Shown piece after piece: positions 26,751 to 61,737 of a stretch of DNA of 64,000 bases. The notes under the pieces were generated by a model, which saw only the letters and a program-made list of their open reading frames with translations, was not told the DNA's origin and did not search any database. The position numbers were made by a program, and so were the translations under genes. Every line of letters begins with the position of its first letter. Positions within the stretch are counted from its first letter, which is position 1. This DNA comes from Planctomycetota bacterium (GTDB lineage Bacteria; Planctomycetota; SZUA-567; H5-PLA8), in NCBI GenBank assembly GCA_038227875.1, contig JBBRPR010000009.1, positions 1-64,000 on the forward strand, read 5' to 3'.

Positions 26751-26780
26751 CAACACATTCCTTCTTTTACGACGCTGCAA

Positions 26781-28177: not shown

Positions 28178-28180
28178 TCG

Positions 28181-28981: not shown

Positions 28982-29189
28982 GCAGATCCCCCTCATTCCC
29001 ACTACCTGCGAACTCTAAAACCGCACCGGCTTTATAAGGTGCCTATTCAGCTTAACCTCCATGTGGCAGAAACGTCATCATTTTCAGACAATTTTAGCGA
29101 GTACAACGAGTTTTGTGTCACGCAAAGACTTCGACGGGCTCGTCGAGTCGCCGCTAAGACGCAAAGAACTGCATTTTTGGGGGGACCTC

Positions 29190-37465: not shown

Positions 37466-38326
37466 ATGGCCGCGTATCGGTTGGAATCCCCCACTAGATT
37501 TCTGAACGCCATGTGCTCGATCACGCAGAGCGAACTGCATCCGCAAAATACGGTAACGTTGATTTCGGAAGTAGACCTGACTGAAGTGGAAAGCATTCGT
37601 CGTCGTTCGCTGGCCGGATCCAAGCCTTCTTACACGGCCTTCGTGGCCAAGGCGGTTGCGCTGGCGCTGCGGGAATTTCCCTACGCCAATCGGCGGCTGG
37701 CGCGTCTGCCCTTTCTGGGCCTGCGTCTGCAAACCTTTCAACGCATCGATGCCGCGATCCTTTGCGAGCGGGAAATGCCAGAAGCGCCCATGTTGGCTTT
37801 CGTGGATGTGATCCGCAACGCGGACAATCTTTCGCTATCTGAAACCACGGAGCGCCTGCGAGCCCTGGCCACGTGCGACGAATCGAACAACAAGCAATGG
37901 CGCGAATTCAAAACCATCATCACCACGCTGCCGTCGTGGATTGCTCAGCGGATCATCGGACTCCCGCTGCTCTTTCCCAGCCTGTGGATGAAATATCGAG
38001 GCGGGGCGTTTTCGATCAGTTCGCCGGCGAAGTATGGCGTGGATTCAATCGTTGCCACATGGCCCTGGCCGTTGGGCGTGTCGTTCGGCCTGGTCAAGCC
38101 GCGCGCCGTGATACGGAACGGGCAGGTTGTCGTCCGGACCACGTTCAATCTCACACTCAATTTCGACCGGCGGATCATGGCCGGCGCACAAGCCGCGCGT
38201 TTCTTCAAGCGCATAGTCGACATCCTGGAAAACGCCACTATCGAGATGGAGCCGTATCTCCCGGCAACGGCACCCGTAAGCAACGGTGCTTCTGCTACAA
38301 AGGCCGCCGCGTTCGTGCGGGTCTGA
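37466..38326 (+). CDS. Stand-alone 2-oxoacid dehydrogenase E2 acyltransferase-like domain
   Basis: SYTAFVAKAVALALREFPYAN, GAFSISS, LTLNFDRRIMAGAQAARF; no lipoyl domain; AAGGAG RBS. Confidence 0.85.
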   Translation: MAAYRLESPTRFLNAMCSITQSELHPQNTVTLISEVDLTEVESIRRRSLAGSKPSYTAFVAKAVALALREFPYANRRLARLPFLGLRLQTFQRIDAAILCEREMPEAPMLAFVDVIRNADNLSLSETTERLRALATCDESNNKQWREFKTIITTLPSWIAQRIIGLPLLFPSLWMKYRGGAFSISSPAKYGVDSIVATWPWPLGVSFGLVKPRAVIRNGQVVVRTTFNLTLNFDRRIMAGAQAARFFKRIVDILENATIEMEPYLPATAPVSNGASATKAAAFVRV

Positions 38327-38345: not shown

Positions 38346-41300
38346 CTACTTGCCCTTGAATGGAATCGGTGCGATTCCGGCCTTGCGCGCTTCGTCAATT
38401 TCGATTCGAACGAACATTGGATTGTTAGTGTTCTCTTCCATGCGTTGAGTCGCCGAATTAATGGCGTACATCAAGACTTGCGAGGACATCTCGGTCCGTA
38501 GTTGTTCCGCGCGTTCTGAATCCAATTTGGCGTAGTTCTTGTTCTTCAGATCTGTTTCACCGAGCACGGTGGTCTCGATGCAATAGCTGCGTGTTTTTGC
38601 TGCGTCCAAGTAGAAGCCAACGAAGCAATGATTTGGCGTCAGAACGAGGTAAACGTCGATTCCCATTTTCTTGAGAATCGACGCGAAGAGCACACTGCCG
38701 TCGACGCAGTTTGCCTGTTCCGACGAGAGCGAGTCTTCGAGCAGGCGCACGTGTTGACTGATGATTTTGTCGGAGCGGCCCGCGGTGCTGGTGATGCTGC
38801 TGTATTTGATTCCCCGATTTGCCAGCGCGTGCCAGACAGCTTCCACCTGCTCAAACACCTGACCATTTTGATAACCGGTGATGGACTGGATGTGATTGGT
38901 CTTCATCGCTTCGACCAGAATTTTCTGAACCTCAGGATGATCTTCGTTGACATACGCCGCGACCATCCAGCCCATATTGATGACCGGCACACGAACGTCG
39001 GTGCCGCGCATGCGAATGGGGCAATCGTTAATCGGCCTGAGCGACAGCGTCTCGTTCCGCTCTCCAATTTGGACCCCGTTTTCAAACACGGTGATCGTGA
39101 GCGTTATTGGCGTCAATTGCTTGCACTGTTGAAGCTTGTCGAATTTGTACGTAATCTTTGGCTTGATCAGATACGCTTCGCCGGCCTTGGGTAGAACTTC
39201 CTCGCACGTGCTGGGTTCGATAATTCCATCCGCTTTGAATTGAACTTTTATTTTAGCTCCGGCGGCCTGTCCTCTGACTCGTATGCCGAACATTCCTTCC
39301 ATTTCGCCCAGCTCGTGAGGATCTCCGGCCATCCGGGTTTTCTTTTTGTTGGCGGTGGCAATGATGTAGGACGGGAAAATGTTTCGATCCATTTCCAATA
39401 TGGGTTGCCATTCCAACCCGGCCGGCGTTTTTGATGTGACAGATGGATTTTCCACCCAGGCATGCTCAGCGACGGGAGGCATCTGAAGTTCGCCCTGTTT
39501 CACATTATGAGCAAATTCAAGCGGCGAGGGCTTCGCCATATGCTGCAAGTGCGCCCGAGCCCGGGCTTCTCCAATCATATCCGCCAGGAACAACGGAGCC
39601 ATCCAGGCCATGTGGCCCATGTCATTGCCTTCCACCTGTGTGGATACGATCAGTCCGGAGCCGCCATTCTTCATGGTTAACGAGACACGCGCGTCGCCTT
39701 CGGAGAGTTCGTCCATGCGACGCAGAATGAGTTCGGATCCGTCGCTGCCTTTCATGTGTTCGATGAAATCGGGATAGGATCGCAGCACGCGCAGGCATTG
39801 CTGCATCGAGCATTCAATCGCGAAGATCTGGGCTCCGCCGCATTGCGGCGTCCACGTGGATTCCGTAGTGGACGCGACCCGGCGGATGATTTCGACGTCG
39901 TTGCTGACCAGCAGAAAGTCATCGACGATGCCAAAGGACATGAAATCGGCAGCGCTCGAACTCAGCACGACGTTCTTGCCGCTATCCGTCTTTGGATTTC
40001 TGCCGTAATCGTTCCGTTGCACGGCGCCGAATTTCTCCATGGACTGTTTGGCCAGCGCCAAGGCCGCGTTGGAATCCGTGTATCGAATAAAGAATACGCT
40101 GCGTGGCTCCTTGACCGATCCCGTCGGGCTATACAAAGCCAATCCAAATGTTCCGTCCGTCAGTATTGTGTTCAAATTTGACGGCGGGATGCCATAGCCT
40201 TCGCAGAATCCACGCTTTACGGCGTCCCAGTCCTGACCCATCGTGCGACGCCCGAAATCATCAAGATTTTTCAGGCTGAACGTCATTGCCAGCATGGGTT
40301 TTCCCATGCGACCCAGCAACCCGGCGCTCGACTGTCGTCCGTCGATTTCGCTTAGGAGGTGGGACGTCTTTGCGAAGAGAACGTGCGCGGCGCTGGTGAG
40401 CTTTTCATTTGAAAAGGCAATGCCCCGGACCTCATCAATCACTTTTGGTGGTTTGATCCATGACGGCAGCATTTCAAAGGTTCGGGCCAGGCTGAAGTAC
40501 CCTGAAAACTCGCCGTTCTTCTGAAGCGGCGCAACGGCAGACTTGAAATCATCCATGTCCGACAACGGCGGGTTATCGCGCTCTTGGAGAAAGGGCTTGA
40601 TCACGCCATCGACGGCAAATCGGCTCAGAGGCAACCCGATCAGAATCCGTCCTTTGACGACAGTCATTTCGATCACATCGGGCACGCGGTATACGATCTG
40701 GCTGGTGCCGGTTTCGGTAATTTTCGCGCCCTGGGCTTCGCAAATTTTGCGAAATGTCGTCAGCGGCGTGGCTTCGTCCAACGCCCAGGCACTGATCACG
40801 ATGCCCTGAACTTCACGCTGGACCACAATTGAAATTGGATGGGATAAATCAATTCCGGCCTTGGTGTAGTCCTTGGGATTGAAAATGTCGAAACTGGTCG
40901 ATTCTTTCACCTGCGCCGCCGCTGCTTTTATTTCTTTCGCGCCTGGGCTGGAGGAGTTTTTCGCAACCTGCTCCACGAAGGAAGTCAGACTTTTGTCCGG
41001 ATGCGAAATGGAAAAGACGGCCAAGCTGTCAGACGGTGCATGAGCCGCTTCGGTCAAGGCGTCGGGTTCCGCAGCGACAACCACCGGAGGCGGCGGAGTC
41101 AGGATGCTCATGCCCACAAAGAGGGCCACCGCCAGGATGGCTACGATTCCGCCCGCAATTAGATATATTTTCAAACCGCGGCCTTCAGGCGCCGGCGATT
41201 CTGGCTCTGTGTAGACGTGCGAGGAAGGGGCAACAATGGCAGGCGCCATGGGTTCCGGCACCGCCGGTGAAGCGACGGTTCCCTGCGGAACTTCGACTGG

Positions 41301-41495
41301 AGCGGCCGCGGGTGCGGGAGCGGCGGATCGGTTCAGCGCCGCCATTTCTCCGGCCGGCGTCCACACCGCCTGGTCCGATGAGACCGAGTGAAATTTGGTG
41401 ACTTGCCCCATTTGGTAGAGGCGTCCCAATTCGTCCAGCGAGTAAGGCCCTATGATTTTTCCACGCCAGCGGACAAAGTACGGACCATTACTCAT
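38346..41495 (-). CDS. GYF_2-like domain + TM + DUF3352-like region + transglutaminase-like C-terminal domain
   Basis: YFVRWRGKIIGPYSLDEL...W; TM at about aa 110-130; ANCVDGSVLFASIL...PNHCFVG...IETT. Confidence 0.78.
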   Translation of the reverse strand: MSNGPYFVRWRGKIIGPYSLDELGRLYQMGQVTKFHSVSSDQAVWTPAGEMAALNRSAAPAPAAAPVEVPQGTVASPAVPEPMAPAIVAPSSHVYTEPESPAPEGRGLKIYLIAGGIVAILAVALFVGMSILTPPPPVVVAAEPDALTEAAHAPSDSLAVFSISHPDKSLTSFVEQVAKNSSSPGAKEIKAAAAQVKESTSFDIFNPKDYTKAGIDLSHPISIVVQREVQGIVISAWALDEATPLTTFRKICEAQGAKITETGTSQIVYRVPDVIEMTVVKGRILIGLPLSRFAVDGVIKPFLQERDNPPLSDMDDFKSAVAPLQKNGEFSGYFSLARTFEMLPSWIKPPKVIDEVRGIAFSNEKLTSAAHVLFAKTSHLLSEIDGRQSSAGLLGRMGKPMLAMTFSLKNLDDFGRRTMGQDWDAVKRGFCEGYGIPPSNLNTILTDGTFGLALYSPTGSVKEPRSVFFIRYTDSNAALALAKQSMEKFGAVQRNDYGRNPKTDSGKNVVLSSSAADFMSFGIVDDFLLVSNDVEIIRRVASTTESTWTPQCGGAQIFAIECSMQQCLRVLRSYPDFIEHMKGSDGSELILRRMDELSEGDARVSLTMKNGGSGLIVSTQVEGNDMGHMAWMAPLFLADMIGEARARAHLQHMAKPSPLEFAHNVKQGELQMPPVAEHAWVENPSVTSKTPAGLEWQPILEMDRNIFPSYIIATANKKKTRMAGDPHELGEMEGMFGIRVRGQAAGAKIKVQFKADGIIEPSTCEEVLPKAGEAYLIKPKITYKFDKLQQCKQLTPITLTITVFENGVQIGERNETLSLRPINDCPIRMRGTDVRVPVINMGWMVAAYVNEDHPEVQKILVEAMKTNHIQSITGYQNGQVFEQVEAVWHALANRGIKYSSITSTAGRSDKIISQHVRLLEDSLSSEQANCVDGSVLFASILKKMGIDVYLVLTPNHCFVGFYLDAAKTRSYCIETTVLGETDLKNKNYAKLDSERAEQLRTEMSSQVLMYAINSATQRMEENTNNPMFVRIEIDEARKAGIAPIPFKGK

Positions 41496-41498
41496 CAG

Positions 41499-44495
41499 CT
41501 ACAATCCTTTCTCACTCTTCTTGATGTCGCCGATGTTCGTGGGCCACAGCGCTGGCACAACGGGGGAATTCTTGAGGTAGCGGTCATACAATTCCTCCGT
41601 GCCCATCTTTGCATCGACAGGCGAGAGGAGCGGCTGGCCCAGGGTAAGTAGTTCTGGATGGTACCAGACCAGAGAGCCATCACTGCCCACGGCGGCTGCA
41701 ATGCGAAAATAGGGAATCTTGTCCTGCATGACGAGAGTCCAATATTCCCGATAGCTCTGCCCGCCAATGTCGTGCGCCACGCGATTACCCTTCTGGTCGC
41801 GCATGAATACTGCACTGAGGCACAGGGGCCGCGTCAGCGCGATGCTCTCCGCTTTGACACGCGCGGGCTGTCCGGCAATGACGCTTTCGAGATGCTTTTT
41901 CAGCTTGGGCGTCAACTCGGCAAGGCGCTCTGAAATCTTTCTCAGCTCCGTCTGAATCGAGGGGTCATCGGTCATCCAGAAATTGAGCTTATCTGCGGAT
42001 AGTGCATCAATTTCCGTTTGCAGTGCGGCGGGAATGGCAAGACAACAGAATTTATCCTTATCCAGGACGGTCAGCTTCTGCAGCAACAAAACATGGACCC
42101 ATGGATTTACATCTTTATATTCCAATACGTCGCGAACGAGGGTGGGGAAGTCCTGCTCCCACTCCATTTTTTCAGCCGAGGCCTTCAACTTTTTTGCTAC
42201 TTCGCTTGCGAGTTCGCAATGCCGCGCAGGCACGATGTCGGAAACGTCACCAGGCTCCTGCGGCATAAGTGATTTGGGTTTCATGGTGTCGTCAAGGAAA
42301 GCTTTGATCTGGATTTTTCCATCACCCACATTGAGCTTGGATTCTCCATTGGCGGTGTAATAAATTTTTCCACCCATTTGAAATTGATTCATTTTTGTCA
42401 AAAGGTCGTGATTTAAAACTTTAAATAGATCCGCGAGTTCATTCTTGTAGTCCGCATGAAAAGCCGCGCGAAACCGGTGTAATTTCAATTGATCGCTGTA
42501 AGGAGAAATGGGAATTTCCGGGCGAACTCTGGCCACAGCGGCGGCATATTTTACGTACGAGGGCGATTCCTGACCGGCAACCGACTTGATCGCATCCCCG
42601 TATTCCGCGACAGCCTTGTACGAAGGGGCCATGATTTTCCACTGCTGAAGCCCCTGTGTCTCGGGGATTTCGCCGTACGATTCGGCGAGCTTGGCGATCT
42701 CTTCAGCGTAGGCATTCAAGTCGGGCATTTTCTGGCAGGCTTTGAATAGATCCTTCTGCACCTTCTCAAGAGTTGCGCGCTCCTTGTCCTCCTTGGAGAT
42801 TACTTTTTCCAAGCGATTCTTTTCGTCTACGTAGCGCTTGCGAAAGTCCTGAACTGTACGCACGAGCTCGGTTTCTTCCTTCAATCCTTTGTACGCTTCC
42901 AGGCGCAGTAGCAGATCGTCCATCTTGACAAGCCGTTCCCGTAAACTATCGGAGGTCACGGTGCTTTGAACGGCCTTGTAAGCTTCGGTCACTTCGCTCA
43001 TCAGTCCCCGGGCCGCTTTAACGTTTTCATCTTTGCGCTTAAAGCGCACGGCCTCCACGTTTGCTCTGCACTCCGCCAGGCGTGCCTTCTCTTCATCCGA
43101 GCGTACGAGTGTATTGGCGTCGGAAATCGCGGTGTCGAGCGTCGGCGAAAATGGCTCTTCCAACTTTCCCGCGAGTTCCAAATCCGTTTCGAGACGCTTC
43201 TGGCGCACCCCTTCGTCAGATTTCGCCTGGTTGAATGCCAGTACCTCGCGATGAATTCCCCCGTCGTCGAGCAGGTCCGGCGCGTCGCGTCCAATCGAGC
43301 TGATGAAGGTCTGCCCGCCTTTAAAGTCAGCGGTATCGGTATAGCGATGAATTTGCGCGGCGATTGCGCTGCGTTTCTGGCCGGCGGAAATCGCGACCAC
43401 GATCCACAGTACCAGAAGTATTCCGGCCAGTACTCCGCCACCGATGGCCGCCAGGCGCAGGTTCTTCTTCAGCGACACCGCGTTGTCGCGCGCTTTGACG
43501 TAAGACTCTGCCTTCTTTCGCAAATCGTCTGGCAACTCGCGCTTACCCAGCTTATTGAGCAGTTGCCGAACTTGCGCCGGATCTCCCGCGCTCTGAATCA
43601 GTGTGCGCAGTTCCTGGCAGTCCGCGGCGAAGGTGACCTCCTGTTCGCGCTGCGTTTTCTGCTCGGTGTGCCAGTACCGCGCATCTTCGACGACGGCGGT
43701 CTTGTCGGGCGCAATCGATACGCCCTCGTTTTTGGAAAGCTCATCCAATTCTTTAAGCGCGGAGCCGACCTGATCGTAGTCGTTGGCGGCAGTGCCGATG
43801 TTCAAGCGATTGATCAAGTTCTCCATCGCCTGATGCACGCGCGCGGATTTCAGCCTTTGGTGAATTTCTTTTGCAAACGTAATCAATTGATCGCCGGGAA
43901 TGACGAGCAGCTGTTTGTCGGTCAGTTCCTTTACGTACTCCGCCGCAATATCCTCGGTCATGCCTTCCGGCTTGCGCAGCAACTCCCCGATCTCCTTGCA
44001 GCGGGCGACTTCGAGTGCTTTCAGGTCGTCGGGCCAGTTGGGATTGGCCGGATCCAAGGCACGAATTCGGCGTACGATGGAGATTTTCTCAGCGGTGCTG
44101 CCGCCTTTGACGCTGAGGCGCCGGTAGACCTTTTGCATCGGCTCGAGTGCTTCGTGTTTTCCGTAGGCTTCCTGCAGCGTCTGGATCCGGCCGGAGTTGA
44201 TGGACGGCGGCACCGGCAAGTTGTTGGAAACGGTGTAGCTCGTCCAGACATCGAGACCTTCGAAATCGAGCGCTGCGAGAACGTCCAGCAGGGGCGGGGG
44301 CGTTTCGGCGAGATGGATGGCTTCCGAACGCAGACCGCGGTTGATGTGCTCGTAGATTTCATCGAGCCGGCGCACGGCTTCGTTGGCGATGACGGCATAA
44401 TCTGTGGCCAGAGACGAAGCCTCCGCCGGATCGACGGGGATCTTGCGGACGACGATGTCTTTGATGCGGTTAACGGTGGTTTGGTAATTGGGCAC
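41499..44495 (-). CDS. Large helical/coiled-coil bitopic membrane protein
   Basis: 998-aa ORF with a single TM (LAAIGGGVLAGILLVLWIVVAI), tightly packed in the operon. Confidence 0.8.
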   Translation of the reverse strand: MPNYQTTVNRIKDIVVRKIPVDPAEASSLATDYAVIANEAVRRLDEIYEHINRGLRSEAIHLAETPPPLLDVLAALDFEGLDVWTSYTVSNNLPVPPSINSGRIQTLQEAYGKHEALEPMQKVYRRLSVKGGSTAEKISIVRRIRALDPANPNWPDDLKALEVARCKEIGELLRKPEGMTEDIAAEYVKELTDKQLLVIPGDQLITFAKEIHQRLKSARVHQAMENLINRLNIGTAANDYDQVGSALKELDELSKNEGVSIAPDKTAVVEDARYWHTEQKTQREQEVTFAADCQELRTLIQSAGDPAQVRQLLNKLGKRELPDDLRKKAESYVKARDNAVSLKKNLRLAAIGGGVLAGILLVLWIVVAISAGQKRSAIAAQIHRYTDTADFKGGQTFISSIGRDAPDLLDDGGIHREVLAFNQAKSDEGVRQKRLETDLELAGKLEEPFSPTLDTAISDANTLVRSDEEKARLAECRANVEAVRFKRKDENVKAARGLMSEVTEAYKAVQSTVTSDSLRERLVKMDDLLLRLEAYKGLKEETELVRTVQDFRKRYVDEKNRLEKVISKEDKERATLEKVQKDLFKACQKMPDLNAYAEEIAKLAESYGEIPETQGLQQWKIMAPSYKAVAEYGDAIKSVAGQESPSYVKYAAAVARVRPEIPISPYSDQLKLHRFRAAFHADYKNELADLFKVLNHDLLTKMNQFQMGGKIYYTANGESKLNVGDGKIQIKAFLDDTMKPKSLMPQEPGDVSDIVPARHCELASEVAKKLKASAEKMEWEQDFPTLVRDVLEYKDVNPWVHVLLLQKLTVLDKDKFCCLAIPAALQTEIDALSADKLNFWMTDDPSIQTELRKISERLAELTPKLKKHLESVIAGQPARVKAESIALTRPLCLSAVFMRDQKGNRVAHDIGGQSYREYWTLVMQDKIPYFRIAAAVGSDGSLVWYHPELLTLGQPLLSPVDAKMGTEELYDRYLKNSPVVPALWPTNIGDIKKSEKGL

Positions 44496-44511
44496 GGAAA
44501 ATTAGCTCCTC

Positions 44512-47316
44512 TTATTTACCATTGAATTCAAACTGAGCGGCGTCGGAGTTAAAACTTACCATCGGAGCCATTAATTTGACTCTTTCTACGATCAACTCCT
44601 TTTCAAGTTTGTTTGTATTAATAAAACTATTTAAAGCATTTATTAACGCGACCTTCGCACATTTAAGACTATTTGTTTCATCGTTCACAAATGCGTCAAA
44701 TTTCGCTTTTTCAGCCGGGACTACATCATAGTTTTGAAATTTTAAACTGGCTTCCGCCAATTTTCTTCGATAGGATTCAAATTTGGTATTAATGTCTTTG
44801 ACTAATAAGGGCACTGAAATCTTAACTAGCTGATCATCAATTTCTTGCCGGCGCAGGTCTTTTTCTGCGACCTTTGATTTGATCTTTTCGACTTCGATAT
44901 CGATTGAATCTACAAAAACAACTTTTGCCACTAGGGACCCGTTAGCATTTATTACTCCAATCTCTATACTTGCGATATTGTCTGTTGAGTTCTTTTCGAC
45001 TACCGATGACGTTAGCGTGCCTTCGGAAATAGATAAAGACAAAACTGGCTCCGATTTTATTTCCATATCTAATCCTAAATGTTTAGATATATTTCGATTT
45101 AATGTCCAGCCGCTTTTCTTGCTAATATTTAAAGTATATCGTTTGCTGGCTCCGACTGGACTATACACTAACTCACTAGAATCCTTTGGAATTTGACATT
45201 TTCCTATTGGGCTAATCTTGCATTTTTGATACAGGCTCCATACGTTGTCTCTATATTGCAAGCCCAGTTCAAGGATGGGTCTATCAGAACCCCTTGGGGG
45301 GGATATTTTTAGAAGAAAATCGGACTTTAGAATAGACGCTACATCATTGTCGATTGAATTTTGTTTGCTTATTCGAATTCGTTCTTGGTCAAGTGAAATT
45401 GTAAGCAAGTTATTTTCGCGCTCAAGAAGCTCGTAATCTTCGGTCCCTTTTACATTTCGAAGCGTCAGTTTGTGGCCAGCCATGCCATCGCCACTTGAGA
45501 CTATTTCAGGATTTTTAAGTGGCATGTCTAAATTTAACCACTCATCGATCTTCTTGGTTTCTGTCTTTGCTTCTACTACTAACTGCGGAGTGATCTCGAC
45601 TTGCGGGAGACGGGAATTGTCGATTTTTGGAGGATTTACATTTATTGAAATGACTCCTTGTGCTGCCTCGCCATCCTCATTCTTAATGCTGTAATTAAGA
45701 ACCGTTTTTCCAACGTTAGACAAGGTGCCTTTTAGCACACCGGATTTCTCCAAGGTCAATGTGTCGGGCATCGATCCAGCGGGTTCATACGTCTGATTTG
45801 CTTCTGCGAGTGCCAAAGAATGCTTGAATGGCGTTCCGGCAATTTCTTCAAAGGCAGGGTCTGCTATTGCAATGGGCAATTTCGCGCGAATTCGAAGTTT
45901 CAACACGCGTGACGATTCTAGATTTTCTCGCGTTGCGCGGAATCTAACCTGACCATCGAAGTGCTCTAAAGGCGTACCTCTTAAGACGGCACCCTCAAGG
46001 GTTAGGCCCTTTGGGAGCTCGGATTCAACGGATATTTTTGCGAATTGGTGGTCTCCTAGTTCGATTGAACACTTATAAAACTCGCCGATTCGTCCCGCTG
46101 GAAGCATCGTTGTCGCAATTTCGGGAGAATCGACTATGCCTTTTGATATGGTTTCGCCGGGTACATCAATCTGCGGAATCGCTTTTGCTTGATTGATCAG
46201 GCAATAGATGCCCACACCCGCGCAGAGAAAGGCCGCCCCCATAATCACGAGCGGAACCCACGGTACGCCTTTACTTTTTTCAGCCACCAGAGGCGTAGCC
46301 TGAGCCTTGGACGGGCCGTGGATCGCATGTGGTACCATCGCGGGATCGATGCTCGGGGCCGCAACGGCGGCGGCTTGCACCACCACTTTTGCGGGCGTCG
46401 CCGCACTAATCACGACTTTCTTTGCAGCCGCGCCAGACTTTGCGGCCTCGGCGGGGCGGGCTGCAGCTGCGGCGGTTAAACTCGCCGGCGCGCCAGCGCG
46501 TGCCCAGCCAATCCGTGCCTCGGCGTGCGCATCGGTCAGGCTTGCTTCGCCCTTGATCACTTTCACGCCGCTTCCGGAGACATCCAGGATCCACGCCTGC
46601 GGATTGCGACGAAGATCCGTGAGCAGCGTCGAATCCGGCAGGATGCATTGAATGTTGCAAAGAGCTGTCGGCCGGTCGGTCAAGTAGGTGCTGAACGTTG
46701 TGGTCCAGCGTTTTTCGGACGGGAGCAGCGCCAGGACATCGTCGACCAGATTCAGAGTCGGCTGGCCAGCGTTGAAGATGAGTCCGATCTGGGTCGCGGG
46801 TTGATCGAAGAGACGCTGGGCGATGACGCCAGCCCAGCCCGCATCGCCTCCGGGCAACTCCTGCCACGCGGTGGCGGGTTTACTGGGACGCACCGCCGCC
46901 CGAAATTGCTTTCGGTTGGGCGGGAATTCAACGGGCTCGCCCTGCCATTGCGTTTCGAATAGACCGGGCTCCAAGGCGGCCCACGCCGGTCCGCCGGGCG
47001 GCAGATCTCCACCGTCGGCCATCGCGAAATGATGCGCGCACTTATTCGTGCGTCCGGAATAATCCGCGCCGGCGTCACCAATGCGTGAGAGCACGCGGTA
47101 GGTTCGGCCACCGGCCTGAACCTGGCTGCAGAGAATGTTTACGGGTTGCACCAGCGGCTGCTGGGCTCGCGCTTCCAGCCACCGATAGCCGCTCATACTT
47201 TCGAGCGCCTGATCCAGACTCGCGGGAAAACCCGCGGTCCGGGCAACCGTGCAGAAACCACGACTACCCGGTTTCAGCCCCTTGGGTGCAGAAGTATAGA
47301 TGAGTTCATAAATCAT
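44512..47316 (-). CDS. GAP1-N2-like GTPase-associated protein with TM, Ig-like (He_PIG) repeats and low-GC C-terminus
   Basis: ELIYTSAPKGLKPGSRGFCTVA, DYSGRTNKCAHH, GDAGWAG, RWTTTFSTY; LPKGLTL...LRGTP Ig-like repeat. Confidence 0.75.
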   Translation of the reverse strand: MIYELIYTSAPKGLKPGSRGFCTVARTAGFPASLDQALESMSGYRWLEARAQQPLVQPVNILCSQVQAGGRTYRVLSRIGDAGADYSGRTNKCAHHFAMADGGDLPPGGPAWAALEPGLFETQWQGEPVEFPPNRKQFRAAVRPSKPATAWQELPGGDAGWAGVIAQRLFDQPATQIGLIFNAGQPTLNLVDDVLALLPSEKRWTTTFSTYLTDRPTALCNIQCILPDSTLLTDLRRNPQAWILDVSGSGVKVIKGEASLTDAHAEARIGWARAGAPASLTAAAAARPAEAAKSGAAAKKVVISAATPAKVVVQAAAVAAPSIDPAMVPHAIHGPSKAQATPLVAEKSKGVPWVPLVIMGAAFLCAGVGIYCLINQAKAIPQIDVPGETISKGIVDSPEIATTMLPAGRIGEFYKCSIELGDHQFAKISVESELPKGLTLEGAVLRGTPLEHFDGQVRFRATRENLESSRVLKLRIRAKLPIAIADPAFEEIAGTPFKHSLALAEANQTYEPAGSMPDTLTLEKSGVLKGTLSNVGKTVLNYSIKNEDGEAAQGVISINVNPPKIDNSRLPQVEITPQLVVEAKTETKKIDEWLNLDMPLKNPEIVSSGDGMAGHKLTLRNVKGTEDYELLERENNLLTISLDQERIRISKQNSIDNDVASILKSDFLLKISPPRGSDRPILELGLQYRDNVWSLYQKCKISPIGKCQIPKDSSELVYSPVGASKRYTLNISKKSGWTLNRNISKHLGLDMEIKSEPVLSLSISEGTLTSSVVEKNSTDNIASIEIGVINANGSLVAKVVFVDSIDIEVEKIKSKVAEKDLRRQEIDDQLVKISVPLLVKDINTKFESYRRKLAEASLKFQNYDVVPAEKAKFDAFVNDETNSLKCAKVALINALNSFINTNKLEKELIVERVKLMAPMVSFNSDAAQFEFNGK

Positions 47317-47366
47317 AATTTTTTCGTTCTAGTCTCTAAAGAACATCACGAAGGGCGCCTTAACTT

Positions 47367-49451
47367 TCAAACGCCCGGTGTTGGCGATTCCGGCTTGGGC
47401 ACGACAAACGGTTTTCCAGTCACAGGGTGATGCAGGGTGCGACCGGCATAGCGTTCAGGAATTTGCAGCAGCGCTCCGGGATTGCCCGAGCCGTCCGGAA
47501 TTTCGCAGAACAGCAATCCGCCCGCCTTGCGAACCAGGTTCGCGGACTCTGCTCCAGGCGTCTTGCTTGATCCTGCCAGGAGCATTCCCCTGCGAGCAAG
47601 GGTGTACAAAAAGGGCACGTTCACCCAGACCGGCTTGATGTCGGCAGGCCGGATGCGATTGAAAAACAATTTTCGCCGGGGCGAATTGGGCTTGAGATCT
47701 TCAGCCGTCGGGAAATTACCATCGGCATCCATCAGCGTCGGCGAGTGGCCCTGCGCACTGATCGGCATGTACGAAACATCCGCCGCAAAGTCTTCCGCGG
47801 CCGAAACCACTTCCGGGCACGTCTGCTGCAAGAGCGCGCGCAGCGAAAACGAGACGTCCTCCACGTGCCCGACATCCAGCCCCGTGACGGCATGTTTCTG
47901 GGATTGCACGTAAGGCGGCTGCCTCAAATTAATGGACAGCAGATTGCCCCAGATATCCATTTTGCCCACGATGACGATGAACAAGCCCTTGTATTTGTCC
48001 CGCTGGCTAAGCCCCAGGTAGCGGCGCACGCGGCGCGCGACTTCATTGAGGATCACATCCTGGCGCTGCAACTCCGCGCCCGGTTGAACCTGCGGGTCGG
48101 TGCTGGAAACTTTGGACCGGAAGCGCGGATCCTTGGTCGGATCAAACACGAAGAATATACAATCCGAACGCGCCATATGCTGCGTGGTGGGCGCATTCAC
48201 CTGCTCGGATCCCGGTTGAAAATGTTCTCCAGCATTGTCGTAAAGAATGATGCTGCGTCCGCTGTTTTGCGCGTTCTGGGAGAGCGGGTTGTGATCCAGC
48301 GCGCGGAGGCTGAAAATAAACGGTTTGGGGTACAGCGTGATCTGACCGTTGAAATTCACCGCGTTGTAAAACTGATCGCCTTCGCCCTGCGTCTTTTCCA
48401 GTCGCACATAAGCGTCCGGATCCTGGGGAAGAAAGAGTTTCTCTTCGTTTTCCTGCAGGCTGATGTTCATCGTCGCGTCGGCGTCGGTGAAGGCGAAGCC
48501 GAATTCGTTGTTCAACGAACGGCGCAGTTCCCAGGTCAGCGTGGCCAGCAGGTACGACTTGCCGCTCTTGGGCGCACCGATGACAGAAACAAAGAGCGGC
48601 TTAAATTCCGCGAGACACTTGGGTACTTCCAAGTGACAGTTGGGACACGCCATTTCATGGCTGGGCATGCCGCCTGGATCGATCGCCTGACCGTCCGGTG
48701 TAAAACGGGTCGGTTTGAAACGCTGCGGCGCATTCCCGCCCAGGAAGGGATCTCCAATCAAATCGGGATGGCGCGCGATGTAAAGCCCGTCTTCCAGCGG
48801 AAACACCGTCATGCAGTGCGGACAGGTACAAGTGTCCGCATCGCCGTGCTTCAACGGGCCGGGTTTATAACGCTCAACCAACGGTGCGGAGATGGGGGCG
48901 GCCAGCGGCACCGTGGATTGCGCCGGGGCGGGTGCGAAATTCGCAACATTGGCCGGCGCGGGCGCTGGCGCCGGCGCTGGCGGCGGCGCGGCCGGTCGAG
49001 CCATCATTTCTCCCAAATCCACGACGATCTCTTCGCCATTGGATGAGGACGTGGGCGCAATTGGCGATGGCATGCTGACGGCGAAGGCCGGAGTTTTCTG
49101 ATCGTTAAATGACACTGGCGGCGGTGAGGCCAGAGTTGCCATGGGCGTCAAAGGCGGCAACGGCGCACTTGGCGTCAACGGTGCTGTGGAGAGCGGCTCC
49201 GACGTATACAAGTCGCCCACATCCAGGGATAACGCCTCTCCACTGGAGGCCACAGGAAATTGCGCGAAGACATTGGCGAACGCATCGCCTGCGCGAACGA
49301 AGTTCTTTCGGTCTTTGCTGACCGGAGTCTCTATAGTGATCAACCCGGTTTTAATGCGCTGAGTAATTTTTCCTAAATCGTACGGTCCCTCGGTGGGATT
49401 GTTGGGGCGTACGATGTACCACTTATCTTCACCGCGAAGCAGCCGAAACAT
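47367..49451 (-). CDS. GYF_2-like + Pro-rich linker + Zn-ribbon + TRAFAC-like GTPase (double-GTPase-2-like)
   Basis: WYIV...EGPYD; CPHC and CPNC; G1 GAPKSGKS, G3 YDNAGEHF, G4-like GKMD, G5-like SAQG. Confidence 0.8.
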   Translation of the reverse strand: MFRLLRGEDKWYIVRPNNPTEGPYDLGKITQRIKTGLITIETPVSKDRKNFVRAGDAFANVFAQFPVASSGEALSLDVGDLYTSEPLSTAPLTPSAPLPPLTPMATLASPPPVSFNDQKTPAFAVSMPSPIAPTSSSNGEEIVVDLGEMMARPAAPPPAPAPAPAPANVANFAPAPAQSTVPLAAPISAPLVERYKPGPLKHGDADTCTCPHCMTVFPLEDGLYIARHPDLIGDPFLGGNAPQRFKPTRFTPDGQAIDPGGMPSHEMACPNCHLEVPKCLAEFKPLFVSVIGAPKSGKSYLLATLTWELRRSLNNEFGFAFTDADATMNISLQENEEKLFLPQDPDAYVRLEKTQGEGDQFYNAVNFNGQITLYPKPFIFSLRALDHNPLSQNAQNSGRSIILYDNAGEHFQPGSEQVNAPTTQHMARSDCIFFVFDPTKDPRFRSKVSSTDPQVQPGAELQRQDVILNEVARRVRRYLGLSQRDKYKGLFIVIVGKMDIWGNLLSINLRQPPYVQSQKHAVTGLDVGHVEDVSFSLRALLQQTCPEVVSAAEDFAADVSYMPISAQGHSPTLMDADGNFPTAEDLKPNSPRRKLFFNRIRPADIKPVWVNVPFLYTLARRGMLLAGSSKTPGAESANLVRKAGGLLFCEIPDGSGNPGALLQIPERYAGRTLHHPVTGKPFVVPKPESPTPGV

Positions 49452-49776: not shown

Positions 49777-50625
49777 TTACTTTTTATAATACGCGAACGC
49801 TTCGTGCTCCGCCTTCGTCCGACTTTCCAACTCGCGCATGTTCGCCGCGTCCAGCGGCTTGAAGGCGCGCACGATCCGCGCGTTGTCATCGACTTCCTGC
49901 TCGGTCTTGCAGCCGATGATCGCGTGGGTCACGCCGCCGAGCGACAGTGCGTAGCCGACCGCTTCGTTCATGCTCAGCGTGTCCAGCAATGCGCCCTGCG
50001 AGCAGGTCTTCATCGCGATCACACCCAAGTTCTGTTTCACAGCTTCCGGCAGCACCGTTTTTATGAAGGAATCCCGATGCACATCCGCCGCGTTGAGCGC
50101 TATCAGGACGGTATCGAACTGAAACCGTTTCATCGCGCTAAGAAGAATGCGCGGATCGTGATGCCCGGTCAGCCCCAGGAAGCGCACGCGCTTTTCGCGC
50201 TGAGCTTGCAGCATCCCCTCGAGCGCTCCACCTTTCGCGAAGATTTCGTCGAGTTCCTCCTCTTCACGCAGGTCGTGCAATTGCCACAGGTCGAGGTGAT
50301 CGGTGCGCAGGCGCTTCAAGCTGTCGTCGAGCAGCCGCAGCGAACCGTCGCGCGTCCGATCGTGCGTCTTCGACGCGAGAAACACCTGGCCGCGCCGCTC
50401 GCCCAGCGTCGCGCCGTAGTAATCCATGCTGCTGGCGTACGCCGGAGCCGTATCGCAGTACGTCACGCCCTGATCGAGCGCCCGCGAAATCACGCGCGCA
50501 GCGGCCTTGTGTTCGCCATGCGTCCGCAACACGCCTTCGCCTCCGAGCCCGAACAGCGAAACTGAAACCCCCGTGCGGCCGAGCACGCGGGAAGGCAGGG
50601 GAGGGGGAGTCGATGGAGTTATCAT
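49777..50625 (-). CDS. Aldo/keto reductase
   Basis: RVLGRTGVSVS, DTAPAY, FLASKT, SLKRLRTDHLDLWQLH. Confidence 0.92.
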   Translation of the reverse strand: MITPSTPPPLPSRVLGRTGVSVSLFGLGGEGVLRTHGEHKAAARVISRALDQGVTYCDTAPAYASSMDYYGATLGERRGQVFLASKTHDRTRDGSLRLLDDSLKRLRTDHLDLWQLHDLREEEELDEIFAKGGALEGMLQAQREKRVRFLGLTGHHDPRILLSAMKRFQFDTVLIALNAADVHRDSFIKTVLPEAVKQNLGVIAMKTCSQGALLDTLSMNEAVGYALSLGGVTHAIIGCKTEQEVDDNARIVRAFKPLDAANMRELESRTKAEHEAFAYYKK

Positions 50626-50766
50626 AGCTGCAAACGTAGCCGAATCCACGCGCTCGTCAAAATGTAACGCCGGTACAAAAAAGTGTGACGAACGCGCATC
50701 CTGCGTGGAATTTCTTTCGACGTTCGGCCATATTTATCAGCTCGTCATTATTATCAGGAGGTGCTC

Positions 50767-53277: not shown

Positions 53278-53292
53278 AGCAGAGAGGACTTC

Positions 53293-53658
53293 ATGAAACT
53301 CCAGCTCAAACGCGTCATCATCTTCACGCATCAAATGGCCCGCATGACCGAATTCTACCGCGACCAACTCGGCCTCAAGGCGCTCATCGATCCGGAATAC
53401 GACGCCAGCGATTGGATCGAATTCGACGCCGGCGACACGCGCATCGCCCTGCACAAAGGCCACGGCGGCGGCGCGAAAAGCGCCACAAAAACCTGCGCGC
53501 ACAAACTCGTCTTCTACGCCAAGGACGTCGCCAAAGCCCGCGCCGCGTTGCTCAAGAAGAAGGTAAAGATGGGCGACGTCAAAAAATTCGGCACGCTGGT
53601 CCTCTGCGACGGCACGGACCCGGACGGAAATAAGATTCAGGTGTCCAATCGCATTTAG
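53293..53658 (+). CDS. VOC/glyoxalase-family protein
   Basis: EFYRDQLGL, WIEF, DPDGNKIQV. Confidence 0.9.
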   Translation: MKLQLKRVIIFTHQMARMTEFYRDQLGLKALIDPEYDASDWIEFDAGDTRIALHKGHGGGAKSATKTCAHKLVFYAKDVAKARAALLKKKVKMGDVKKFGTLVLCDGTDPDGNKIQVSNRI

Positions 53659-53732
53659 CATTCCCACAACGCCATACGCCAGCGCCGCTTGCTCATTTGG
53701 TTTCAGCGCCAACTATGGTGTATAATCATATC

Positions 53733-54239
53733 ATGAAACTCATCCCGTGCGACAACCCGGAATGGATGCTCTTCGACTGCAGCGCGTTGCGCGAGGATGT
53801 CATCGTTACTTGTGGTTTCGGTTTGGGCATGCTGTTCCTCGTCACGGTAACACCGGGCACGTTTGGGTTGATTACCATCGGCGTCGGCGCGATCCTGATG
53901 CTTGGCGCCAGCGCGTTTATGGGATTTTCGCACCATGGCGTGTTGATCGACAGAGCAGCGGGAATCGCTACGGACTGGCGGGAAGTCTTCGGCTGGCGCT
54001 TTTACTCGCGTGAGTATCCGCTCAATAAATTCTGCCGAGTCGAATTCACCAATACATTTCAAGATTACAATCGCATTCAGTTAATCGCCATCGCGGGCGA
54101 TCTTGTTTTGGGGAACGCAGATAGCCCTGAAGATGCCCATACGTTCGGGACCGCGATTGCCGACTTTCTTCAGATCCGCTATCGCCATGAACTGCTGTGG
54201 CTGGAGACTCCGCCGAAAAATAGTGTGAGTCTGAAATAG
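53733..54239 (+). CDS. Two-TM hypothetical protein, paralogue 1
   Basis: Similar to the next ORF; TATAAT ends 6 nt before the ATG. Confidence 0.7.
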   Translation: MKLIPCDNPEWMLFDCSALREDVIVTCGFGLGMLFLVTVTPGTFGLITIGVGAILMLGASAFMGFSHHGVLIDRAAGIATDWREVFGWRFYSREYPLNKFCRVEFTNTFQDYNRIQLIAIAGDLVLGNADSPEDAHTFGTAIADFLQIRYRHELLWLETPPKNSVSLK

Positions 54240-54244
54240 TCCCT

Positions 54245-54772
54245 ATGGAACGCATCGACTGCGACAACCCCAACTGGCGGCTCTACGACTGCAGCCCCGA
54301 TCGCGTCAATGCGATCCCATTTTTGATCTTAGGATCCGTGGGTTTAGTGGCGTTAATGGCTGCTCGCGAAGTGTGGCTATTGAGCTTCGTCTCGCTGGGG
54401 TTTTTTGCCGCTGCGTATTTCATGCTGTTCCAGCGCGGTGTTCTGATGGACCGCAAGGATGGCAATGCAACTGAATGGTGTGAATTTTACCGCTGGCGGC
54501 TGTTTAGCCGAACACACGATTTGCGCGCGGTAGATTCCATTCGTGTCATGCTGCACTCTGGCTCTCGTAGTTCCTCCTACGACATTGGGCTGCGCGGCGC
54601 GTCGTTAAGTCTGCATATCGGTCCGTTCTTCGGCCAGCACGAAGCTGAAACCGCTGCTGTCGATCTGGCAGAGTTCCTTCATATTCCGTACGGCCCCGCA
54701 CAGCGCGAGGAACTCGAAGACATCATTCAAACCCACAGGCTAAAGCGGTCCACGCCGATGTCGCCCGAATGA
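54245..54772 (+). CDS. Two-TM hypothetical protein, paralogue 2
   Basis: Shares CDNPxWxLxDCS, GVLxDR and AxFLxIxY with the previous ORF. Confidence 0.7.
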   Translation: MERIDCDNPNWRLYDCSPDRVNAIPFLILGSVGLVALMAAREVWLLSFVSLGFFAAAYFMLFQRGVLMDRKDGNATEWCEFYRWRLFSRTHDLRAVDSIRVMLHSGSRSSSYDIGLRGASLSLHIGPFFGQHEAETAAVDLAEFLHIPYGPAQREELEDIIQTHRLKRSTPMSPE

Positions 54773-54832
54773 CACCGCTATGATTGCGATCAATCGGTGC
54801 ACGCGCGTTCGCGGGTGCTCGATTGCCTTAGA

Positions 54833-54860
54833 TTGACACGCCACCAAACAGTTCTACAGT
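54833..54860 (+). promoter_or_regulatory. Sigma70-type promoter
   Basis: TTGACA-16 nt-TACAGT upstream of the glycoside hydrolase gene. Confidence 0.55.
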
Positions 54861-54924
54861 TTGCCGTCGATGGGCTCCGCCGTTCACGTCAATTCCCCAA
54901 CTCACTTTCAGCAATGGAGCAGGC

Positions 54925-61691: not shown

Positions 61692-61737
61692 CGCCGCGAC
61701 CCTGTGTCCTTACACGACACTAGATAAGGAGCCAAAC

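Follow-up and report, generated by a model that had tools for sequence, protein, structure and literature searches.

The closest described relatives of the locus analysed here are the GAP1-N2 'GTPase-centric' conflict systems, a class that was predicted computationally (Kaur, Burroughs, Iyer & Aravind, eLife 2020; PMC7159879) and for which no experimental study of any member was found in the literature searched. As presented in the main text of that work, these systems contain a Zn-ribbon DO-GTPase with a Walker-B glutamate, followed by a GAP1 protein that carries both the N2 and M domains, a C-terminal TM helix and a variable extracellular domain, together with further components that are membrane-proximal and variable. 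Planctomycete GAP1-N2 systems in which GYF proteins are fused to trypsin or to a TM-rich region are already mentioned there, so the system is not unknown territory.

The window, the whole stretch of 64,000 nt that was analysed, comes from an uncultured bacterium, probably a planctomycete, and contains four minus-strand ORFs with all frames intact, which span 38346..49451 and are separated by intergenic gaps of 50, 16 and 3 nt; the tight operon of the original prediction was thus recovered with the same coordinates, strand and gaps. Its features and the two genes that bound it are as follows.

47367..49451, minus strand: gene 1 (P0001), 694 aa, with a GYF-like head, a Pro/Ala-rich linker, a Zn ribbon, a DO-GTPase2 domain and a C-terminal extension of ~65 aa
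49275..49421, minus strand: GYF-like domain of the GTPase (aa 11-59), Pfam GYF_2 below cut-off
48633..48830, minus strand: Zn ribbon together with its conserved insert (aa 208-273), where the gene 3 N-terminal domain is predicted to dock
44512..47316, minus strand: gene 2 (P0002), 934 aa, with GAP1-N2, GAP1-M, an Ala/Pro linker, one TM helix and an orphan ectodomain
46603..47316, minus strand: cytoplasmic GAP1-N2 (aa 1-132) and GAP1-M (aa 154-238), by Pfam
44515..46194, minus strand: GAP1 ectodomain (aa 375-934), low in GC and hypervariable, with one He_PIG repeat at aa 505-558
41499..44495, minus strand: gene 3 (P0003), 998 aa, GTG start, helical and single-pass
43896..44495, minus strand: N-terminal domain of gene 3 (aa 1-200), predicted binder of the GTPase Zn ribbon
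38346..41495, minus strand: gene 4 (P0004), 1049 aa, with a GYF domain, a TM helix, a periplasmic region of ~560 aa, a beta-sandwich and a transglutaminase-like core
38349..39428, minus strand: C-terminal module of gene 4 (aa 690-1049), an Ig-like beta-sandwich (~692-830) and a transglutaminase-like core with C930/H956/E974
49777-50649: aldo/keto reductase gene, flanking, unrelated
37466-38326: 2-oxoacid acyltransferase-like gene, convergent, unrelated

The first gene product matches DO-GTPase2 at 31.3 bits (cut-off 27), and its motifs GxPxSGKS (292-299), YDNAGE (404-409), KxD (497-499) and SA (565), as well as the Walker-B glutamate, are invariant in all 16 aligned GTPases. The Zn ribbon consists of two invariant CPxC knuckles, C210/C213 and C269/C272, and the invariant residues of this region are C210, P211, C213, R244, F245, P247, F250, A256, C269, P270 and C272. 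A hydropathy scan found no TM helix in P0001; the gene encodes a soluble GTPase that has a Zn ribbon and in which the G motifs are intact. Its GYF-like head scores 18.1 bits against GYF_2, under the cut-off of 25.8, and is 31% identical to the GYF domain of gene 4 (pairwise E 3e-6); elsewhere a GYF domain on the GTPase occurs at locus G013 and in 5 of 80 PVC loci. The DO-GTPase2 match, the knuckles and the weak GYF_2 match together bear out the earlier description of gene 1 as a GYF-like/Zn-ribbon/GTPase.

The GAP1 protein scores 84.4 bits for GAP1-N2 and 24.8 bits for GAP1-M (cut-off 24 for both) and has one TM helix, at 356-374. Among 21 GAP1 proteins, conservation is confined to this cytoplasmic part, and the ectodomain of P0002 could be aligned to none of the other 20 ectodomains compared; a search of 5.8 billion proteins returned just three weak matches to it. 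Composition changes abruptly inside the gene, from a GC of 0.63 in the cytoplasmic part to 0.413 in the ectodomain (41%, with the genome at 60%). He_PIG reaches 23.6 bits in P0002 as a whole and 29.4 bits in a scan restricted to aa 375-570, so that of a bitopic GAP1-N2-like protein with Ig-like repeats, the GAP1-N2 domain and the single TM helix stand, and one He_PIG repeat is detectable rather than several. On the Pfam matches and G motifs, the operon is a PVC-type member of the GAP1-N2/DO-GTPase2 systems, and its assignment to the computationally described GAP1/double-GTPase conflict systems was right. Unlike the systems in the main text of PMC7159879, it has no FNIII-repeat protein, tubulin, vWA, HSP70 or kinase theme, its constant third gene encodes a helical single-pass protein of ~1000 aa, and a periplasmic transglutaminase-like module forms the end of its GYF protein; the word 'transglutaminase' occurs once in that main text, for VMAP proteins.

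The order GTPase, GAP1 and ~1000-aa helical protein is kept across dozens of genomes, with the helical protein present in 18 of 20 loci of the phylum and in all 46 PVC-wide loci that have at least 3.2 kb after GAP1, and it is an obligate third core gene. P0003 belongs to no Pfam family and gave no fold match at E≤1e-3; its AF2 model has a mean pLDDT of 82.5 and a pTM of 0.45. Beyond its cytoplasmic N-terminal domain and the TM helix that hydropathy places at 351-369, the protein continues into the periplasm as a long helical part with an alpha/beta C-terminal region, as expected of the 998-aa helical bitopic protein originally proposed. The position of the single TM helix is shared by every homologue of gene 2 and of gene 3. 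The conserved N-terminal domain of gene 3 is predicted to dock on the Zn-ribbon insert of the GTPase, with ipSAE values of 0.77, 0.77 and 0.78, while the best control gave 0.10. Between runs, 87% or more of the contacts agree, and the partner has a pLDDT of 84 or higher. Among solved complexes 116 of 157 attain the mark used, as do 2 of 215 mismatched pairs, counts that hold only roughly for self-made alignments and three chains; since there is no solved relative by sequence, the score is unlikely to stem from a memorised structure. The predicted interface comprises GTPase residues 206, 218-223, 235, 245-256, 259, 267 and 278-282, and includes the conserved F245, P247, F250 and A256 of the GTPase and the conserved G54, E58, R125 and L129 of P0003. 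In the three-chain model GAP1 is absent from the confident interface, and the GTPase-GAP1 contact received no score.

Gene 4 is modelled as a cytoplasmic GYF head followed, beyond a TM helix at 110-128, by a periplasmic beta-sandwich/papain-like Cys-His-Glu module. Its Pfam matches lie under the cut-offs for GYF_2 (25.5 bits, cut-off 25.8) and Transglut_core (15 bits, cut-off 23), so that among the domains proposed for checking, GAP1-N2, GAP1-M and DO-GTPase2 score above their cut-offs and these two below; DUF3352, also proposed, scores a weak 13.7 bits, and its likeness to aa 132-690 (Pfam E 0.013-0.025, Atlas feature score 0.92) is only a lead. A word-indexed protein search found no full-length homologue of P0004. 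The C-terminal module is modelled at pLDDT 94.1 and pTM 0.92, with C930 at the beginning of a helix and H956 and E974 on or beside adjacent strands, and this triad is invariant in all 64 aligned family members. Foldseek matched the module to TG3/TG2 at E 1.2e-4, and VIA to 3kd4 (Z 9.5), TglA (Z 8.6) and LapG (Z 8.4, rmsd 3.6, 136 residues aligned), scores of 8-9.5 being modestly above background; its fold matches include transglutaminases, PNGase, LapG, TglA and the cell-wall isopeptidases PeiP and PeiW. The model, the fold matches and the triad sustain the view of gene 4 as a GYF-like bitopic protein with a Cys-His-Glu transglutaminase-like end. This end may be an effector but could equally be a sensor, because the module forms the C-terminal ectodomain of five planctomycete Ser/Thr kinases of 1026-1062 aa and the ectodomain of the FHA-TM proteins P0005, P0027, P0045 and P0106.

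Two further comparators share the fold or the domain of this module. In the LapD-LapG system (PMC3032553, PMC3032545, PMC4359373), a cytoplasmic nucleotide signal acts through a membrane protein on a periplasmic cysteine protease of transglutaminase-like fold, and the same logic may apply here, except that the signal would be GTP hydrolysis rather than c-di-GMP and the enzyme is tethered in one polypeptide with a cytoplasmic adaptor; at the level of sequence gene 4 is related to neither LapG nor LapD, and the likeness is an analogy of logic only. Residues 747-1047 of P0004 are homologous to the N-terminal ~300 residues of the anti-phage protein ProA of Prometheus (NCBIfam NF058533, E 5e-28), which PMC13700489 describes, citing a validating study. 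Against a full ProA equivalog the module is 28% identical (E 3e-13), with the catalytic Cys and His kept. ProA is a cytoplasmic DNA2-like nuclease/helicase of ~1900 aa, whereas the module of P0004 is extracytoplasmic, and the 97 bits that P0004 scores against the ProA model (cut-off 1500) reflect a single domain in common.

Outside the operon, a MotA/ExbB-like module is encoded on another contig (C2), next to a gene 3 paralogue that has the N-domain only. It consists of a 280-aa protein whose channel core is of the MotA/ExbB/TolQ kind (Pfam 39 bits) and, after it, two single-TM proteins that bear an acidic residue (Asp) where the TM helix begins. The channel core is common to Zorya ZorAB and the Tol/Ton/Mot 5:2 proton motors (PMC11946911, PMC11890865), and the 280-aa protein matches ZorA models at E 1e-10 over ~70-110 residues, but it lacks the long ZorA tail; the module has two different B-like subunits, lies outside the four-gene operon and includes no ZorB, ZorC or ZorD match. 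Many planctomycete sister loci adjoin a MotA/ExbB-like stator with Asp-bearing partners, and Lentisphaerae sister loci carry PilM-like (PilM/FtsA-like) proteins; MotA, ExbB, TolQ and 'proton' do not appear in the main text of PMC7159879, whose figures and supplements may show more. The sister planctomycete clusters have in common with this system the core, the GYF genes, a stator-like module and swapping of the periplasmic GAP1 domain, and differ in that here the motor is unlinked, the GTPase bears its own GYF domain and the GYF protein has a transglutaminase-like arm. These machine-like partner modules count against a conflict reading.

Co-conservation of the four genes holds for the first three and for the GYF head of gene 4. 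In substance, neither of the two outcomes that were to refute the original reading, failing domain matches and a lack of co-conservation in other genomes, was obtained. A GYF-headed membrane protein comes next in 9 of 20 phylum loci by phmmer, with a tenth by Pfam, and in a wider survey 22 of 34 loci have a GYF ORF further downstream; across related loci the head alone is conserved, and the periplasmic part and transglutaminase-like end were found in none of 100 other related loci, which suggests an architecture so far unique. Three scanned sister systems have a GYF-TM-trypsin protein at the gene 4 position, and the output domain is swapped even between close loci.

Taken as a whole, these observations are tentatively best explained, at somewhat short of an even chance, by a membrane-spanning GTPase switch with a periplasmic thiol-enzyme output and a role in conflict. 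It is possible, though on balance unlikely, that the same hardware serves a housekeeping function with no part in immunity, as a GTPase-gated, perhaps PMF-assisted regulator of envelope/peptidoglycan remodelling or of a surface structure, in which the module would be a wall-active enzyme. The module family (2222 representative clusters) consists mostly of signal-peptide proteins and includes fusions to PG_binding_1, SPOR, FHA and Ser/Thr kinase domains, and therefore a peptidoglycan sensor or remodelling enzyme fits as well as an effector; the PeiP/PeiW likeness and the stator- and PilM/FtsA-like partners of sister loci point the same way, as do the flanking genes, which are housekeeping genes and neither a defence island nor a mobile element, and PADLOC, which gave nothing for the four proteins at E≤0.01 (its single match was mad8 to P0001, E 0.056). 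Set against this are the occurrence of the system in just 36 of the 401 genomes sampled from the phylum, in one of four genomes of its genus (g10) and in none of eight others sampled from the family, the foreign composition of the orphan ectodomain and the variable output, all unusual for an essential envelope function.

A reversed flow of signal, in which the gene 4 module senses peptidoglycan or a peptide and informs the GTPase through the GYF head, the output lying elsewhere, for example in the trans-encoded MotA/ExbB-like module or in some process of the cytoplasm, is improbable. The kinase and FHA-TM ectodomains are classic outside-in architectures, and GYF, like FHA, is a cytoplasmic adaptor that binds peptides, yet the invariant triad would argue for retained enzyme activity, the trypsin-like protease at the equivalent position in sister systems is not a typical sensor, and GAP1 already has a hypervariable, sensor-like ectodomain. 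That the four genes are mere neighbours or an assembly chimera is already disfavoured and very improbable, for although the assembly is fragmented (176 contigs, 88% complete) and composition shifts within gene 2, the first three genes keep their order in dozens of genomes, the frames are intact and closely spaced, and contig pieces 95-99% alike cover all four genes in a run from another study (X2).

In the preferred reading of a GTPase switch with a periplasmic thiol enzyme, the GAP1 ectodomain would sense a periplasmic or surface event and set the nucleotide state of the GTPase. The GTPase would be held at the membrane by the helical scaffold of gene 3. The paired GYF domains and Pro-rich linkers might then recruit gene 4 to the switch, by GYF-to-GYF or GYF-to-proline-linker contacts that we propose purely by inference, and a trans-encoded proton-channel module with two Asp-bearing single-TM partners may energise the system. 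The output would be activation or release of the thiol enzyme, which would replace the trypsin-like protease that sister systems have in the periplasm, and would most likely cut or cross-link peptidoglycan-linked or envelope proteins. The conflict flavour is suggested by the patchy distribution, the orphan low-GC ectodomain, the swapped output domain and the ProA homology, and we infer from these a defence or self/non-self role, most likely surveillance of the envelope against phage or competitors, as has been proposed for the class.

The original prediction of a tight four-gene operon on the minus strand was correct, and the operon is a real and well-delimited unit made up of four intact open reading frames:

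47367-49451, minus strand, P0001, the GTPase (gene 1), 694 aa, intact ORF
44512-47316, minus strand, P0002, the GAP1 protein (gene 2), 934 aa, intact ORF
41499-44495, minus strand, P0003, the helical scaffold (gene 3), 998 aa with a GTG start, intact ORF
38346-41495, minus strand, P0004, the GYF-TM-transglutaminase-like protein (gene 4), 1049 aa, intact ORF

The gaps between successive genes are 50, 16 and 3 nt, the GAP1 gene lying directly downstream of the GTPase gene across the first of these. An aldo/keto reductase gene lies upstream of the operon across a 325-nt gap, a 2-oxoacid acyltransferase-like gene lies downstream in convergent orientation, and the remaining window is ordinary chromosome encoding EF-G, EPSP synthase, HPPK, LpxC, LpxA and cyclophilins. 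Promoter- and terminator-like sites did not exceed the counts in shuffled controls. Orthologues of the aldo/keto reductase that are 71-78% identical occur in same-family genomes, which have nothing else in common around this gene, so that the operon is not demonstrable as an insertion. A PADLOC search with the four operon proteins returned no family at E<=0.01, the sole match being mad8 to the GTPase at E 0.056. Elsewhere in the window, an 838-aa LRR protein gene is divergent from the aldo/keto reductase, and a 935-aa ORF (54925-57732) without a Pfam family lies farther along, both within 50761-57732; at 23883-29002, a run of three genes with N-terminal methylation (type IV pilin-like) motifs precedes a same-strand 965-aa ORF that lacks any Pfam match; and three cyclophilin-type peptidyl-prolyl isomerase genes stand in tandem at 60100-62250.

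The first two genes belong to the GAP1-N2-type DO-GTPase systems. P0001 matches DO-GTPase2 (PF19993) with 31.3 bits against a cut-off of 27, and P0002 matches both GAP1-N2 (PF20013, 84.4 bits) and GAP1-M (PF20014, 24.8 bits) above their common cut-off of 24, so the assignment to the GAP1/DO-GTPase families was borne out. The reading of gene 1 as a zinc-ribbon GTPase is likewise upheld by the PF19993 match together with two CPxC knuckles (C210/C213 and C269/C272), which are invariant in all 16 aligned GTPases of the clade, as are the GxPxSGKS, YDNAGE (E409), KxD and SA motifs. The main text of Kaur et al. 2020 (PMC7159879) gives the Walker-B glutamate as a family mark of DO-GTPases, which belong to the TRAFAC class, and because this residue, the G motifs and the knuckles are all invariant, P0001 looks like an active GTPase. 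It has no TM helix in a hydropathy scan, and it carries an N-terminal GYF-like domain that scores 18.1 bits with GYF_2 (PF14237), below the cut-off of 25.8, and that is nevertheless homologous to the GYF domain of P0004 (31% identity, pairwise E 3e-6). The Pfam model PF19993 missed even this GTPase in a whole-genome search, and a profile of the 16 GTPases was therefore used, which found a single DO-GTPase copy in the genome (88% complete). A pair of GTPases is not obligatory in the class, since two paralogous GTPases are stated for only 38% of GAP1-N2 systems in the same main text (Kaur et al. 2020, PMC7159879).

P0002, P0003 and P0004 each have one TM helix (residues 356-374, 351-369 and 110-128, respectively), whose position by hydropathy scan is the same in all homologues compared, and from the positive-inside rule applied to the flanking charges we read all three N-termini as probably cytoplasmic. 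Gene 2 is thus the bitopic GAP1-N2 protein that had been predicted; of the Ig-like repeats also assigned to it, one He_PIG repeat was recovered (29.4 bits, fragment scan), but a plurality of repeats was not. A Pfam scan of P0002 at E<=1 gave no match to GAP1-C, the third globular domain of GAP1 proteins, and the protein continues beyond GAP1-M with an Ala/Pro linker, the TM helix and an orphan ectodomain, for which a search of 5.8 billion proteins returned three weak matches at the level of the Ig repeat, and which does not align to the ectodomains of other GAP1 proteins. Base composition changes abruptly within the gene, and the break coincides with the TM helix:

Rest of the window, 60.6% GC
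Operon, 54.3% GC
Cytoplasmic part of GAP1, 63% GC
44515-46194, GAP1 ectodomain, 41.3% GC
44512-45600, 38% GC

The GC content of the genome is 60%, and the ectodomain is rich in Lys, Asn, Ile and Ser. This composition, the GC break and the lack of relatives together suggest that the GAP1 ectodomain may have been replaced recently. Contig pieces of 150-520 nt from three sequencing runs (X2, X4 and X5) leave 44516-46018, within the ectodomain, uncovered, with no bridging contig. No RNA data set appears among the sequencing runs listed as containing this DNA.

A sample of 401 genomes from the phylum gave GAP1-N2 matches in 36, the window's own included, and in none of the eight other same-family genomes among them; one further same-family genome, G013, carries it (one of four genus-g10 genomes searched). 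Twenty loci taken from the 38 places listed were used for a neighborhood survey by phmmer; in 18 of them the gene straight after GAP1 encodes a P0003-like protein (975-1017 aa), and of the other two, one lies at a contig end and one has a weak GAP1 match. The GTPase is present in 15 of the 20, and the GYF head of P0004 is matched in nine, with a tenth found by Pfam, while past about residue 134 P0004 is matched in no locus. Starting from the GTPase alignment, a wider survey reached at least 573 relatives, of which 80 loci, named as Lentisphaerae, Victivallales, Kiritimatiellota, Verrucomicrobia and many Planctomycetota, were kept and searched with HMMs from our own alignments; GAP1 was present in 71, a P0003-like gene in 50, a MotA-like gene in 20 and the transglutaminase-like module of P0004 in none, and the GTPase ORF itself carries GYF in five. 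Where enough sequence was available, the P0003-like gene was found in 46/46 loci, a downstream GYF ORF in 22/34 and a MotA-like gene in 18/34. The helical scaffold is therefore an obligate third gene, and the predicted co-conservation of the four genes stands for GTPase, GAP1 and P0003, but for P0004 only as far as its GYF head. Three sister GYF proteins that were scanned combine GYF with one TM helix and trypsin, and others combine GYF with multiple TM helices or with DUF4190, in agreement with the planctomycete architectures described in the main text of Kaur et al. 2020 (PMC7159879). The architecture of P0004 is unique among these loci, and no full-length relative emerged from a word-indexed search of 5.8 billion proteins. 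In contrast to canonical GAP1-N2 systems, in which Kaur et al. describe an accompanying protein with rapidly evolving FNIII repeats, the constant third gene here is of the P0003 family, no FNIII match was found at E<=1 in the four operon proteins by Pfam, and the single He_PIG Ig-like repeat belongs to GAP1; we therefore file the operon as a variant, and not a canonical member, of the class.

P0003 has no Pfam family. Its AF2 model is a long helical structure with some beta structure near the C terminus (pLDDT 82.5), which returned nothing at E<=1e-3 in Foldseek and, in a wide VIA search, only three-helix-bundle matches to residues 480-575 with Z<=11.6, a level too low to carry meaning for helical models; because a model of 998 residues exceeds the size at which a domain search is fair, we do not propose a new fold. 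The conserved positions lie mainly within residues 1-200. When this region was predicted as the scored partner in a three-chain complex with GTPase residues 200-694 and GAP1 residues 1-250, the P0003/GTPase pair reached ipSAE values of 0.77, 0.77 and 0.78 (best control 0.10), with at least 87% contact agreement between runs and partner pLDDT of at least 84. In calibration, 116 of 157 solved complexes attain the docking mark used here, as do 2 of 215 mismatches, figures that apply only roughly to the present prediction. In the prediction, the zinc-ribbon insert of the GTPase (206, 218-223, 245-256 and others) contacts P0003 at 50-66, 121-137 and 153-164, and both partners contribute conserved residues to the interface (F245, P247, F250 and A256 of the GTPase; G54, E58, R125 and L129 of P0003). 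The model thus supports docking of the scaffold on the GTPase zinc ribbon; with P0003 as the scored partner, GAP1 is absent from the confident interface. PDB sequence searches with profiles of all four families gave nothing beyond marginal Der/EngA matches.

The GYF_2 match of P0004 falls just short of its cut-off (25.5 against 25.8 bits), and the head matches GYF proteins of sister loci that themselves score 40-81 bits; DUF3352 is weak, as is Transglut_core (15 bits, under the gathering threshold of 23). The C-terminal module (residues 690-1049) was modeled by AF2 with pLDDT 94.1 and pTM 0.92 as a beta-sandwich followed by an alpha/beta core, in which C241 opens helix 241-254, H267 opens strand 267-273, and E285 comes directly after strand 281-284 (module numbering; C930, H956 and E974 of P0004). 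These three residues are invariant in 64/64 aligned sequences, comprising 62 chosen from 150 matches listed, mostly shorter than 460 aa and with near-full module coverage, together with the FHA-TM protein P0005 and the query. Foldseek ranks human transglutaminases 3 and 2 first among PDB structures (E 1.2e-4, probability 0.89-0.91); both share the sandwich-then-core order, and next come a putative cysteine protease (3isr), PNGase and XPC/Rad4. VIA alignment of the core gave 3kd4 (Z 9.5, rmsd 3.0, 132 aligned), TglA (8.6), LapG (8.4), PNGase (8.2), PeiP (8.0), TGase (7.9) and PeiW (7.6), and of the sandwich generic Ig-like domains at Z about 8; these Z values are modest, and the matches are consistent with each other and with a Cys-His-Glu triad. 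No solved structure related by sequence was found in the PDB. The predicted structure places the module in the transglutaminase-like thiol peptidase fold class, with a conserved triad, which confirms the Cys-His-Glu end proposed for gene 4.

The module represents a distinct, unnamed branch of the transglutaminase-like superfamily. Among 1.84 billion representatives it matched 2222 clusters at E<=1e-3 and 423 at E<=1e-30, most members being 380-450 aa long with the module starting near residue 20-30, and the six members inspected have signal-peptide-like N-termini. In a Pfam scan of 18 members, seven gave sub-threshold Transglut_core/core2 matches, three were FHA-TM fusions, and PG_binding_1, SPOR, protein kinase and TPR occurred once each; a search for longer forms found five planctomycete Ser/Thr kinases of 1026-1062 aa that end in the module, which is the only part that P0004 shares with one of them (P0082). 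NCBIfam aligns P0004 residues 747-1047 with positions 28-315 of the 1903-position model for ProA (NF058533; E 5e-28), at 97.1 bits against a cut-off of 1500. The match covers the N-terminal stretch of ProA only, and its nuclease/helicase and C-terminal architecture (DNA2-like) has no counterpart in P0004. A full ProA equivalog in a same-class genome (1962 bits; locus L120, 1501-2640 of G050:C99) is 28% identical to the module (E 3e-13) and retains the Cys and the His, so that, on this alignment, the front domain of ProA appears to be a cytoplasmic member of the module family. ProA is the single-protein defense system Prometheus, which PMC13700489 reports to be experimentally validated.

A MotA/ExbB-like gene comes after the system in 8 of the 20 phylum loci, and it is also present in all four same-family loci with a P0003-like gene. 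It is followed by genes for two single-TM coiled-coil proteins, the first with an invariant Asp where the TM helix begins (10/10) and the second with a conserved Asp or Asn there; we take these two proteins to resemble ExbD/TolR/MotB. The window's genome encodes such a set on another contig, C2 (locus L011, 9022-13384), in the order of a 394-aa paralogue of the P0003 cytoplasmic domain with a TM end, a MotA/ExbB-like protein that is 45-50% identical to those of sister GAP1-N2 loci, the two coiled-coil proteins and bPH_2. This locus looks like the motor half of the system, encoded in trans. In the nearest relative, G013, whose system comprises a GYF-Zn-ribbon GTPase, GAP1 and a P0003 homologue of 33% identity, the motor is convergent beside the system genes in a locus split over two contigs. 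Against ZorA models, the C2 MotA-like protein matched only the generic MotA/ExbB/TolQ core (E 1e-10 to 8e-3), its two partner proteins gave no ZorB match, and the motor differs from Zorya in lacking the long cytoplasmic tail of ZorA and any ZorC or ZorD match. An apparent 708-aa P0003-like/MotA-like fusion in another genome (G014, L009) has an N-terminal 430 aa that is an Arg/Pro-rich wrong-frame ORF, and it is therefore an ORF-calling artefact and not Rosetta-stone evidence. Three Lentisphaerae loci (L039, L042 and L057) have an FHA-GYF-Zn-ribbon GTPase and a short GAP1 without a membrane part, and after the helical scaffold a 600-aa PilM/FtsA-like protein replaces the motor or GYF effector. 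MotA, ExbB, TolQ and proton do not occur in the main text of Kaur et al. 2020 (PMC7159879), whose figures and source data may list more, and transglutaminase occurs there once, about VMAP proteins.

The leading reading of these parts is a conflict system in which the GAP1 ectodomain would act as sensor, recruitment would be GYF-based, and the thiol enzyme would be the periplasmic output in place of trypsin. In its fullest form this would be a GTP-gated, LapD/LapG-like inside-out immunity device, in which the ectodomain detects a phage or foreign cell, the docked GTPase flips, and GYF recruitment unleashes the tethered periplasmic cysteine enzyme to cleave or cross-link wall-linked proteins of the host cell, which is thereby sacrificed or sealed, while the proton motor in trans supplies the work and the cytoplasmic module would serve as the trigger in Prometheus; we regard this complete scheme as unlikely. 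The two main rivals of the conflict reading are a non-immune function in the envelope or in peptidoglycan, and a reversed flow of signal in which the module would be the sensor, as its presence in kinase and FHA fusions would favor. If the immunity device does operate, it would link two defense systems through one previously unnamed domain family, and an inside-out direction would provide a second, GTP-based case of cytoplasmic nucleotide control over periplasmic proteolysis.

A full-text literature search for the GAP1-N2/DO-GTPase class, which was defined by computation, returned Kaur et al. 2020 only, and because experimental work on these systems was not found in the literature searched, any well-defined compact version is useful; the present one has four genes with clear topologies. 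It offers clear targets for point mutants in K298 and E409 of the GTPase, in F245/F250 versus R125 at the predicted docking site, and in C930 of the putative periplasmic enzyme. Beyond the main text of the 2020 description, it adds an obligate helical scaffold gene, a predicted contact between scaffold and zinc ribbon, and an exported sandwich plus transglutaminase-like family of 2222 clusters with no Pfam match over cut-off, which turns up again on kinases, on FHA and wall-binding proteins, and on the anti-phage protein of Prometheus. The main interest of the operon is thus as a compact test case that has an unnamed module family in common with Prometheus.
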